From positions 1-21,150 of the IMG/VR virus record IMGVR_UViG_2648501392_000022: a stretch of DNA of 21,150 nt. One strand, 5' to 3'. The position numbers were made by a program. The DNA comes from a virus (Duplodnaviria; Heunggongvirae; Uroviricota; Caudoviricetes). Positions 6,001 to 9,000 of this stretch are shown here, one piece after another; positions within the stretch are counted from its first letter, which is position 1, and each line of letters opens with the position of its first letter.

Positions 6001-9000
6001 ATCCAGCCAGGGGAGGTTCGGCTGTATACCCCTGTAAAGCTCTGCCCTGATTTCTTACAAACAGGCGGAGCCTTGTGTTTGCTTCGTGCCTTGCTCTGTT
6101 CTCCTTGCGGAATGAAACAGGCTCAGCGTCAAAAGTGATTTCGTATACCTCCGCATATTTCAGGGCAACCTTCCGTCTCAGTGACGGAGGCAGCCCCTGT
6201 AACTGCTGCTGAATCCACTCTTCGTCTGCCTGGCAGTACCTAGATGGCATCTCTGTCTGAACGTAATTCTGGGACATACAAGCCCTTCACCTCCCCCGTG
6301 CGCGCTAAGCTTGGATGTGGAAAAAGCTCTGGTAGGTCTGGCCGAAATTCATACGCTTGGATCTTTCCGTCGACAGCTGCAACCAATAACGGCACAAATT
6401 CTGGTGAAATCTTGTTCTTGCAGTTCAACCAATCGCAGACTGTTGACTGGGCCTTTCCGCATCGCTTGGCTAAGGCTTGCTGACTTCCAAGAATCTCAAT
6501 AGCTTTCTCTATGGCTTTATGTTTCATAATCGCATCTCCTATTGAACGCATAATAACAACAGGAAAAGCGATATTCAACGTTAAACCTAGAATATTTATC
6601 GGAAAGCCGATAAACTAGCCAAGATAGAGAGGGGAGGAAAATCGCAATGACATTTTCAGAACGACTTGATTTAGCTATGCGCAACGCAAAATTTACGCAA
6701 GGTAGGCTGGCCAAAGAAGTGGGTATGGCTCAGTCCAGTGTTAATCAACTACTTAACAAAGCCAACGGTTCCAGAAAAACAGTCGAAATAGCAAAAGTTT
6801 TGGGCGTTAACCCGGAATGGCTCGCATCGGGTGTTGGCCCAATGGAAATCGTGACCTCTGCAGACTCACACCAAATACGTAACATTTCTGAAGATTGGGT
6901 TACTGATTCGTATGTCGTGGATGTTTTAGACATCAGATATAGTTGCGGACCTGGTAGTTATAACTCTGATTTTCCTGATATTGTCAGATCTATAGCGATA
7001 GAACCAGGATACGCATCAAGAGTTTTTGGCGGCAGACCAGCATCAGCAATCAAAGCAATAAACGCCCACGGCGACAGTATGAAAGGCACAATAGACCCTG
7101 AAGACTTGGTATTTGTAGATGTATCAGTTCGCACATTTAATGGTGATGGTATATACGCCTTTACATACTCTGGAACATCGCACATCAAAAGACTTCAAAA
7201 AATCAAAGATACTCTAACGGTGATATCTGACAACCCAGCTTACAAGGATTGGGCTATCGAACCGGAAGACTTCGAACAACTTCACATTGACGGAAAAGTA
7301 ATTGTCAGTTGGCCTATGACACTACACCGTTTTGCATAAGCAAAAATCATTTAACCCGCCCACTCTTAAGTGGGCTTTTTTTTTGGGAAAAAATCGATAA
7401 ACCGATTGACAGGTGAAATCGGTAAACCTATTATCTTGACATAGGTATCGAACTCACCAAAGCAATTATAGAGGATGAGAAAAATGTCATCGTATATGGG
7501 ATTACCAACAAATCAGCACGATGCTCTTGAGAATATTCAGCTCTTAGTAGGGACTGGTGCACTACTGTATAGCAGCAATAACCCTGAGTTAATTGAACTT
7601 GCCAGCTCCATCCTGGCTGTAACTCAAAAATATAGCCTCACCGCGTCACGTTTATGCAAACAAAATTTAGCTATTAATTCCCAGAATCGGATTCGCACCC
7701 AACGCGAAACCTGCGGCTTAACAACCGCCGAACTCGCTAGGCTGCTCGATCTCGATGAAGAAATTATCATCCAGTGGGAGAGCGGAGAGTACGAACCAAC
7801 CATCAGCATGCTTATCCCTCTGGCTAATGTTCTTGGCTGTGATCCAATGTTGTTATTGACTGATGCTTATAAACAAAATCAGGAGGAAGCATAAGATGAA
7901 AATGTTCAAAGGCCTTACCAACGAACCGGAGACAGCTTTTCATCACATTGCCGTACTGCTTGAAGCGGGGTTAATCATTTCGGCTTCCGGTGATGAAGAA
8001 TGTGATGAACTTTCGGATGATATCTTTTTACTGGCACAACAATACGCCAGAAGCGCATGCGATGCATTTAAGGAGCAAAGAACATGAAAACTCCATTAAA
8101 TATTCTTGAGGAAGTGGCAGCACAAATAAAAGAGAATACATCAATGCTTGAATTTATATTTAAGAATTCGCCCGACTCAGGAGAGACAGACGATTATTTA
8201 TGTTGCCTCATTCGCTCCATGAATAAAACCTGTGAAATGGCTTACGCGTATATCGACACACTGCGCAACGAATAAAGAAAACTCAATAAACAATCCCCCA
8301 TAAAAACATAACGGTCTCTGGTCGGGAATTTCCACAACCTGAAAATGGTGGTGATGCATGAAAAACAGAAGTGCTTATAAAACCGCATTATTAATGGCTA
8401 ATGCAGGATACTGGTCAGTTGCAATACTGTTTCTCAGGAAAGCATACGGGAAATAACAAATGACACATGAACCCATTAATACATATCGTCGCCGTATAGC
8501 TGTTGCGGCACTCCATCGAATAAAACGTAAAACAGGTGGTAATCTGCTTATTGTTGACCTTCCGGATGGGAACATTACGACCATAGAAATAACTGAACAG
8601 TTTATAAACCAGTTGCTGTTACGCTTCGAAGGTATTACCCGTGGTGAATTGGGCCGGGTGGAGGGTGAAACCGAAATCCACACTGCATACCAGAATGCTA
8701 TCGGGATTAATCAACATACTGAATACCTGACTGAAACCGGAAAGTTAATTATAGACAACCTTTTTCAAGAGGTTATTGATTACGCGAAAGAAAAATATAT
8801 CAGCGGAGGAATTAACTGATGGCTAATTTATCCCCTGTATCTGTTGTGCACGAAAAAGTGCAGATCGTTATGACAATTGAAAATGGCCAAGTCACAGGTG
8901 TCTGCAAAGTCCGCGATGGCGAGCTGATTGCCAGCATGGATACATTCATACGGCTGGCAGAAAGAGCGGGGTATCAGATAACAGCACCTGCTCAGGAGGA

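Follow-up and report, generated by a model that had tools for sequence, protein, structure and literature searches.

Three 14-bp repeats, distributed between the two regulatory gaps that flank a repressor gene, are, to judge from the sequence, almost certainly the repressor-binding sites of a lambda-like prophage of E. coli. We consider it likely that these repeats act as operators of an immunity switch of the lambda/434 type in a lambdoid E. coli prophage, with the canonical three positions in OR. The switch appears to be an ordinary one of this style, with a DNA specificity that is new. An operator set and a promoter layout would thereby be defined for an uncharacterised immunity type, which should help to predict mutual immunity among prophages. 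The window, i.e. the whole stretch of DNA analysed, comprises 21 150 nt of the IMG/VR virus record IMGVR_UViG_2648501392_000022 (Caudoviricetes).

Layout of the immunity region and the strong sites

The gene order is the mirror image of that of lambda: a cro-like gene, OR, a cI-like gene for an HTH and S24 repressor, a terminator, a pL-like promoter and an operon ending with an integrase gene. The cro-like gene (6240–6527, minus strand; 95 aa, YdaS-family HTH) opens the leftward early operon and corresponds to a RefSeq CDS in E110019; its product matches Pfam YdaS_toxin PF15943 (E = 1e-14) and PHROG 35 (transcriptional repressor). Across a 119-bp gap lies the divergent gene of the cI-like repressor (6647–7339, plus strand; 230 aa), in which an N-terminal HTH is combined with a C-terminal S24 self-cleaving peptidase (Pfam Peptidase_S24, E = 7.5e-17, plus HTH families; PHROG 4 and 6201, CI-like repressor). 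Its translation contains Cys100-Gly101 (Ala-Gly at this position in relatives), Ser144 (in GDSM) and Lys181, and the machinery of self-cleavage, a Ser/Lys dyad together with a cleavage site, appears to be present. A terminator scan identified an intrinsic terminator (7358–7384, plus strand; 7-bp stem and T run) 3' of the repressor gene, kept in variants with compensation in the stem. The first gene transcribed from pL (7475–7894, plus strand; 139 aa) specifies a protein with a C-terminal HTH_3 domain (Pfam HTH_3, E = 2.3e-10; PHROG 4836, 'CII-like regulator').

All three of the related 14-bp sites reported in the initial annotation were located in the window: ATCGGAAAGCCGAT exactly at the position given there (6598–6611), and ATCGATAAACCGAT and ATCGGTAAACCTAT at 7393–7406 and 7418–7431, one base lower than had been stated. 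When the pattern ATCGGTAAACCGAT was searched with up to three mismatches, 8 matches were obtained against 1.6 expected, a number reached in none of 100 shuffles. When the outer 5+5 bases (ATCGG-N4-CCGAT) were searched with at most one mismatch, the motif occurred nowhere beyond the three sites, either in the whole 21-kb window or in a 29-kb stretch of E110019 (0.55 matches expected from order-1 Markov simulations). A scoring matrix was built from the three strong sites and applied to 21 137 positions of the window; these sites score 19–20.5 bits and the next best in the window 9.5 bits.

Two of the repeats are carried by the pL-like promoter, as had been proposed, and this promoter (7406–7434, plus strand; TTGACA at 7406–7411, 17-nt spacer, TATTAT at 7429–7434; 11 of 12 consensus matches) is the equivalent of pL, standing after the repressor gene at the head of the rightward operon. 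The OL2-equivalent operator (7393–7406; operators are given without a strand) contributes its final T as the first base of the -35 hexamer, and the OL1-equivalent operator (7418–7431) fills the spacer, its final TAT being the first three bases of the -10; the earlier description of the promoter as covered at both -35 and -10 was thus roughly right. The OL1 palindrome has one departure, T at position 12, which belongs also to the -10 hexamer in every relative, and the arrangement (site)TTGAC...(site)TATTAT is identical in all relatives. A third OL site was sought and none was found, the sequence upstream of 7393 consisting of the T-tract of the terminator and then an A-tract. ATAGGTATCGAACT at 7441–7454 was rejected as an OL site, with 7 of 14 matches only and a G that is lost in variants. 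The two sites on the early promoter that follows the repressor gene seem to form a second operator cluster (OL).

Promoters and degenerate sites in OR

PR (6550–6578, minus strand) has a -35 TTGAAT at 6578–6573, a 17-nt spacer and a TGn-extended -10 TATTAT at 6555–6550; the promoter scan credits it with 9 of 12 consensus matches in addition to the TG ahead of the -10, and the layout is the same in all relatives. An alternative PR (TTGGCT at 6623–6618, then ATAAAT) was dropped, as it had no scan support and its register is not the one conserved in relatives. PRM is predicted at 6588–6616 (plus strand), with a -35 TAGAAT at 6588–6593, a 17-nt spacer and a -10 TAAACT at 6611–6616. It was not called by the consensus promoter scan because its -35 matches at only 3 of 6 positions. 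The PRM register is kept in all 11 of the 11 loci compared, the final base of OR3 being the first of the -10 and the spacer measuring 17 nt. Transcription is predicted to begin near 6543 from PR (minus strand), near 6623 from PRM (plus strand) and near 7441 from pL (plus strand).

The strong site of this region is the OR3-equivalent operator (6598–6611), whose 5+5 bases form a perfect palindrome within the predicted PRM spacer and which is invariant in eight variants. Two degenerate sites occupy the lambda-type OR1 and OR2 positions. The OR1-equivalent operator (ACAGGAAAAGCGAT, 6559–6572), within the PR spacer, ranks 9 of 21 137 with the strong-site matrix and has three mismatches to the 10 outer bases. 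The OR2-equivalent operator (AACGTTAAACCTAG, 6577–6590), which shares 2 bp with the PR -35 and 3 bp with the predicted PRM -35, ranks 25 and has four; the register 6578–6591 was rejected for OR2 on account of a worse half-site fit. A candidate fourth operator, O0 (ATCGCATCTCCTAT, 6529–6542), ranks 11; it would span about +2 to +15 relative to the PR start and overlap the ribosome-binding site of cro. The centres of OR1 and OR2 are 18 bp apart, which is short for cooperative dimers side by side.

Over the whole window, counts of sites with two or three mismatches are at chance level (74 with up to three mismatches against 69 expected), so mismatch counting alone cannot validate the weak OR sites. 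Since matches of OR1/OR2 quality occur at chance frequency, the standing of OR1 and OR2 rests on position, clustering and comparison. Neither 20 000 local shuffles nor 20 000 Markov simulations gave, even once, three non-overlapping matches of at least 3.9 bits within the 70-bp segment, and two matches of at least 6.5 bits arose with a frequency of 1.5e-4 to 5e-4. In eight E. coli variants (90–100% identity), variation affects 5 of the 56 columns within sites and 21 of the 63 intergenic columns outside them (Fisher P = 0.0016). In OR2, 13 of 14 columns are invariant, while the adjoining spacer bases vary at 4 of 7. OR1 is ATAGGTAAATCGAT, nearer to the consensus, in the 90%-identical E. coli variants UMNF18 and E423, where the N-terminal domain of the repressor is identical.

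Related repressors were gathered by full-length protein search (the 75-aa N-terminal domain alone, used as protein query, returned three partial fragments only). The 13 related loci, with repressors 51–89% identical, retain the O0 - OR1 - OR2 - OR3 scaffold, and in them OR1 and OR2 correspond to recognisable palindromes, near-perfect in some, but being of common ancestry they are not fully independent confirmations of the OR sites. Spacing in these loci is 4–5 bp between OR1 and OR2, 7–16 bp between OR2 and OR3, and between O0 and OR1 16 bp in Q/L-type loci and 19–21 bp in K-type loci; the PR and PRM hexamers hold the same register throughout. The position homologous to OR1 reads ATCGGAAAACCGTT, ACCGTTAAACCGAT or ATCGCAAAAGAGAT, and that homologous to OR2 is occupied by ATAGGAATTCCGAT in L029 and by ATCGCCTATGCGAT in K-type loci. 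O0 is ATCGGTTCTCCTAT (1 mismatch in 10) in L023, L025, L026 and L029, and in L022 it still lies 30 bp from OR1 despite 12 extra bases between O0 and the start codon. Unmistakable triple palindromes, ATCGC-N4-GCGAT, are found in phage Mulock and in E. coli L017–L019. The site tables of the 14 loci describe a 14-bp operator whose outer 5+5 bases are symmetric and conserved and whose inner four are variable. At the level of sequence, OR appears to contain three related palindromic operators that overlap divergent PR and PRM.

The full region is present in 25 of 5426 complete E. coli genomes, with related versions in Salmonella, Providencia, Plesiomonas, Klebsiella and Enterobacter. Among 50 697 phage records searched by Megablast, none contained the immunity region, the only match being one of 90 bp at its edge, and the operator strings are absent from the searchable full-text literature. 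A scan of species-representative genomes yielded four loci in which the repressors have other recognition helices and the operators are different; from these four divergent loci, triple palindromes of 14–16 bp appear to be general in this repressor family.

Proposed working of the switch and alternative readings

From the sequences, their statistics, their conservation and positional homology, we infer the following scheme for binding, order of occupancy, PRM activation and OL-OR looping. Dimers of the 230-aa CI-like repressor would recognise the 14-bp sites, contacting five bases per side (ATCGG / CCGAT) and leaving the four central ones uncontacted; the YdaS-family Cro analogue probably recognises the same sites. 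OR2 would sit between and over two back-to-back -35 hexamers. Repressor bound to OR1 and OR2 (and O0) would turn off cro, the replication genes and the late genes, and repressor on OR2, the centre of which is some 40 bp upstream of the start of PRM, would be placed to activate PRM. Occupation of OR3 by repressor or Cro would turn PRM off. OL2 and OL1, about 795 bp away past the terminator, bracket the pL-like promoter and would keep the rightward early operon, as far as integrase, silent. Induction would proceed via RecA-stimulated self-cleavage of the repressor at Cys100-Gly101. The general picture of how a lambdoid switch works would be left unchanged.

The best consensus match is OR3 and not OR1, the reverse of lambda and 434; affinity is, however, poorly predicted by consensus match (PMC3317979). 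A more elaborate reading, which we put forward tentatively and regard as rather doubtful, is that of a four-site OR with an inverted hierarchy, with OR3 as the best site and O0 lying over the initial 15 nt of the cro transcript. On this reading the repressor would limit its own production to a very low level, so that the lysogen would be of the 'hair-trigger' kind suggested for Stx phages, and PR would be shut by the weak OR1-OR2 pair together with O0 and OL looping. The residue equivalent to Gln33 of 434 (Q34 here, K in relatives) would set operator position 5, G versus C. If this reading were true, immunity would change with one residue and one base. The natural pair ATCGG/Q34 versus ATCGC/K34 may offer a clean case for studying shifts in repressor specificity.

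To our knowledge, repressor and Cro use common sites in every lambdoid switch studied, so binding by Cro would add to binding by the repressor and not replace it; this is one reason why we find it improbable that the palindromes serve mainly Cro (YdaS-type), or the HTH protein encoded downstream of pL, and not the S24 repressor. Such a role would suit the location of the best site over PRM, the first target of Cro in lambda and CP-933P (PMC8630535), the Cro recognition region, in which the ATCGG and ATCGC groups likewise differ, and the HTH gene at 7475, conserved beside pL in Q-type loci. K-type loci, however, have no HTH gene downstream of pL and yet keep the operator architecture unchanged, and the N-terminal domain of the repressor is 434-like, the operators of 434 having the same 14-bp geometry (PMC1636474).

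The initial annotation had described OR as one strong site plus weaker elements, which is fair for the raw sequence, and had gone on to a single OR operator, simpler than the tripartite OR of lambda, and to a different switch logic. If 6598–6611 were the only functional operator in OR, the switch would be unlike that of lambda and control would lie mainly at pL. OR does have only one good palindrome, the others having 3–4 mismatches in 10, a quality common by chance window-wide. We nevertheless judge this reading very improbable, because 6598–6611 lies at least 20 bp upstream of the PR -35 and would be unable to block PR, the weak sites are clustered far beyond chance and conserved while spacers vary, and their positions hold strong palindromes in relatives. 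With three (perhaps four) sites at OR, two of them the degenerate ones at 6559–6572 and 6577–6590, neither the simpler operator nor the different logic is borne out. That OR1 and OR2 are decayed, now functionless relics of a once tripartite operator in a defective prophage seems to us very unlikely: the Q antiterminator and large terminase genes of E110019 carry pseudogene annotations and an IS3 insertion is present there, but the repressor and cro genes and the promoter hexamers are intact, and the degenerate OR2 is kept across E. coli lineages with different replication modules (Rha/ash versus helicase/primase) while flanking bases vary.

Comparison with known switches

The favoured reading, a lambda/434-type switch with three OR positions, can be set against four known systems. 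The closest solved relatives of the repressor N-terminal domain are the 434 repressor chains, the best phmmer matches in PDB (DNA complexes 1per, 1rpe and 2or1); the match is distant (E = 5e-5, residues 4–62), with the recognition helix aligned without gaps. In 434, the sites are of 14 bp with 5+5 contacted and four uncontacted bases, three of them in OR and three in OL (PMC1636474). Common to both systems are an S24 self-cleaving repressor, 14-bp operators with conserved outer 5+5 bases and three OR positions over divergent PR and PRM. The operator is ATCGG-N4-CCGAT here as opposed to ACAA-N6-TTGT in 434, and the immunity specificity is not that of 434. Further differences are the two OL sites instead of three, the best palindrome at OR3 instead of OR1, the YdaS-family Cro analogue and a possible additional site beyond the PR start.

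The PRM -35 of lambda is TAGATA, and in both switches OR2 lies over a weak PRM -35 (TAGAAT here). Also lambda-like are the gene order, albeit mirrored, the back-to-back PR and PRM, whose predicted starts are separated by about 80 bp, and pL downstream of the repressor gene, leading to int. In contrast to lambda, the operators are of 14 bp and not 17 bp, the roughly 0.8 kb from OL to OR contains no rex genes, and cI is preceded by a 5' leader that bears a strong ribosome-binding site. The pL operon does not open with any gene recognisable as N-like. OL, with two sites versus three in lambda, is the part that is genuinely simpler, and this is already known from 933W, which shares the two-site OL and is without an OL3 site (PMC5977221). 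In the Stx phages 933W and BAA2326, the repressor concentrations that fill OR2 and OR3 are nearly equal, which results in strong self-repression (PMC5977221); the operator sequences are unrelated to those described here, where a high-affinity OR3 is only putative.

In CP-933P of E. coli O157:H7, a YdaS protein acts as Cro and binds PRM first, and the four intergenic repeats are accompanied by a PL-like promoter that bears related operators (PMC8630535). The YdaS-family Cro analogue is the shared feature. Neither a PaaR2-type repressor nor GTTTAGTAA repeats were found in the present region when it was compared with that system (PMC8630535). The PaaR2 repressor of CP-933P, which is linked to a toxin-antitoxin pair, is without an S24 domain and has 18-bp repeats of consensus GTTTAGTAA, whereas the prophage described here has an S24 domain in its repressor and operators of the ATCGG type.

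Layout of the immunity region

The window represents a lambdoid E. coli prophage, whose immunity region has the lambda gene order, mirrored. A cro-like YdaS-family gene lies on the minus strand (6527-6240); a 119-bp intergenic region separates it from the repressor gene (6647-7339), whose 230-aa product combines an HTH at the N-terminus with an S24 peptidase domain at the C-terminus. Next come an intrinsic terminator (7358-7375, then a T run) and a near-consensus pL-like promoter (TTGACA-17-TATTAT, 7406-7434). The integrase gene is the last of the rightward operon; among the genes of the leftward operon are helicase, primase and Q. 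Positions 6200-7500 are 100% identical to E. coli E110019 and one further complete genome, and the full immunity region was found in 25 of 5,426 complete genomes (90-100% identity). A 1.3-kb IS3 insertion of the otherwise matching E110019 prophage stretch is missing from the window at ~12200, and one base differs within 2001-2100, in the part where the E110019 annotation gives a frameshifted Q antiterminator gene; on both counts the window copy may be the less decayed one.

A 102-aa ORF of unknown function (5969-6277, PHROG 852) overlaps the cro 3' end by 38 nt and takes the position of cII in lambda. In other versions of this immunity region cro is followed by Rha/ash-type genes, which shows mosaic exchange right at the module edge. 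The first gene after pL (7475-7894; 139 aa, C-terminal HTH_3, PHROG 4836 'CII-like regulator') is kept at the same place in relatives with Q at the residue equivalent to repressor Q34 (Q-type) and absent from those with K (K-type). Its N-terminal 58 residues and the next small ORF (7896-8087) match the same PHROG (4587), which suggests a duplicated small module. The start of the pL operon showed no recognisable N-like antiterminator. Further along that operon lies a small ORF assigned by RefSeq as a ParE family toxin-like protein (9006-9224); the ORF upstream of and overlapping it (8819-9034) may be its partner.

Predicted operators at pL and between cro and the repressor gene

The initial annotation had described three related 14-bp operators. 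All three are present, OR3 at 6598-6611 as given, and OL2 (7393-7406) and OL1 (7418-7431) one base to the left of where they had been placed; each is palindromic, of the form ATCGG-N4-CCGAT. ATCGGTAAACCGAT with up to three mismatches gave 8 matches against 1.6 expected (0 of 100 shuffles reached 8), and the outer 5+5 bases, with at most one mismatch allowed, occur at these three sites alone, whether the window or the 29-kb stretch of E110019 is scanned (0.55 expected). With a half-site matrix they score 19-20.5 bits, whereas no other site in the window exceeds 9.5. On sequence grounds, the strong palindromes are real as candidate operator sites.

The arrangement of two sites at the pL -35 and -10 was likewise confirmed: the last base of OL2 is the first base of the -35, and OL1 occupies the spacer and has TAT in common with the -10. 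OL has these two sites in the window; no third was found upstream of 7393, where the sequence consists of the terminator T run and a run of A. OL3 is missing from phage 933W too (PMC5977221). A half-site at 7441-7454 was dropped as not conserved.

The further claim, that OR with its one strong site is simpler than in lambda and has a different switch logic, was not supported. The promoter scan places PR, the cro-side promoter, on the minus strand (TTGAAT 6578-6573, 17 nt, TGn TATTAT 6555-6550), so that a lone site at 6598-6611, being upstream of PR, could not repress it. When all window positions were ranked by a matrix derived from the three strong sites only, three further OR positions stood out: OR1 (6559-6572, ACAGGAAAAGCGAT) ranked 9, the candidate operator O0 (6529-6542, ATCGCATCTCCTAT) 11 and OR2 (6577-6590, AACGTTAAACCTAG) 25 of 21,137. 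Three such non-overlapping sites in the 70-bp segment were obtained in 0 of 20,000 shuffles and 0 of 20,000 Markov simulations of that segment; two sites of at least 6.5 bits had a simulated frequency of 1.5e-4 to 5e-4. Matches with up to three mismatches are at chance window-wide (74 observed versus 69 expected) and do not single out the weak OR sites, so it is their clustering, their position and the comparison with relatives that speak for them.

OR1 lies within the PR spacer, 3 bases from the -10 and directly adjoining the -35. OR2 shares 2 bp with the PR -35 and 3 bp with a weak plus-strand hexamer, TAGAAT (6588-6593), the -35 of a predicted repressor-gene promoter, PRM, that continues with 17 nt, occupied by OR3, and TAAACT (6611-6616). 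PRM was not called by the promoter scan because its -35 matches consensus at 3/6 positions only. The predicted starts (~6543 for PR, ~6623 for PRM) are 80 bp apart. A 25-bp imperfect palindrome (6571-6595) is centred on OR2, about which the two -35 hexamers are symmetric. Relative to PR and predicted PRM, the sites sit in the OR1/OR2/OR3 register of lambda and 434.

Conservation in relatives and a candidate fourth site

Among eight E. coli variants (alignment A1), variable columns numbered 0 in OR3, 1 each in OR2 and O0, and 3 in OR1, versus 21 of 63 non-site intergenic columns (Fisher p = 0.0016). In the E. coli genomes UMNF18 and E423, whose repressor N-terminal domain is identical to the window's, OR1 is ATAGGTAAATCGAT, with two mismatches rather than three, a change toward consensus.

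Homologues 51-89% identical were found together with their DNA. Loci with the window's type of recognition helix, MAQSS(V/I)NQLL, come from E. coli, Salmonella, Providencia and two metagenome/run assemblies; one of the group has L at the Q position and its operators are still ATCGG. All have ATCGG-type sites on the scaffold O0-16 bp-OR1-4-5 bp-OR2-7-16 bp-OR3, with OR1 inside the PR spacer and the PRM -10 beginning at the last base of OR3. In relatives, the positions of the window's weak sites are thus taken by operators that can be recognised and in some loci are near-perfect: Providencia has ATCGGAAAACCGTT at OR1, and locus L029 has ATAGGAATTCCGAT at OR2. Within the E. coli subgroup OR2 is consistently the most degenerate of the sites, as would fit a site filled through cooperation with OR1. 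K-type loci (Klebsiella phage Mulock, three E. coli prophages and one Plesiomonas contig) have plain triple palindromes ATCGC-N4-GCGAT at OR and the same pL arrangement, with three OL sites in Mulock and two of the E. coli prophages.

O0, at ~+2 to +15 of PR, takes in the cro ribosome-binding site. Four diverged Q-type loci have ATCGGTTCTCCTAT here, with one mismatch; 4 of 5 K-type loci have ATCACCTCAGCTAT, closer to the K-type consensus than to the Q-type one, and the Plesiomonas version, ATCACCACTCCTAT, fits both equally. In locus L022 the O0-OR1 distance stays 30 bp despite 12 extra bases between O0 and the start codon. A fourth operator here is plausible but unproven; for the YdaS-type switch of CP-933P, four repeats are likewise reported (PMC8630535).

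Repressor specificity and comparison with known switches

The repressor N-terminal domain aligns with 434 repressor (E=5e-5), ungapped across the recognition helix. Q34 (window 6746-6748) falls on 434 Gln33, which in co-crystal structures reportedly reaches base pairs 4-5. K occupies this position in every locus with C for G at operator position 5 (5 loci), including Plesiomonas, which has ATCGC operators though its protein is otherwise nearer the window's. The association between residue 34 and operator position 5 may stem from common descent of the protein and its sites.

The repressor has a Ser/Lys dyad (Ser144, Lys181) and Cys100-Gly101 (YSCGPG, window 6944-6949) where related repressors carry Ala-Gly (SAGPG); the UmuD cleavage site is also Cys-Gly. 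Cys100-Gly101 is the likely self-cleavage site and, together with the dyad, suggests RecA-stimulated self-cleavage.

434 operators are 14 bp long and comprise 5+5 bases that are contacted and 4 that are not (PMC1636474), the same 5+4+5 geometry as here. For a YdaS protein acting in Cro fashion, with PRM bound first, there is experimental precedent (PMC8630535). In all Q-type loci it is OR3 that has the best OR palindrome, contrary to lambda and 434. Should intrinsic affinity track consensus, the repressor would keep its own synthesis strongly limited, as proposed for Stx phages (PMC5977221); for the 933W repressor, however, consensus match was not a predictor of affinity (PMC3317979). Judged by its sequence, this immunity switch is a new member, with a new specificity, of the well-known family of lambdoid switches.
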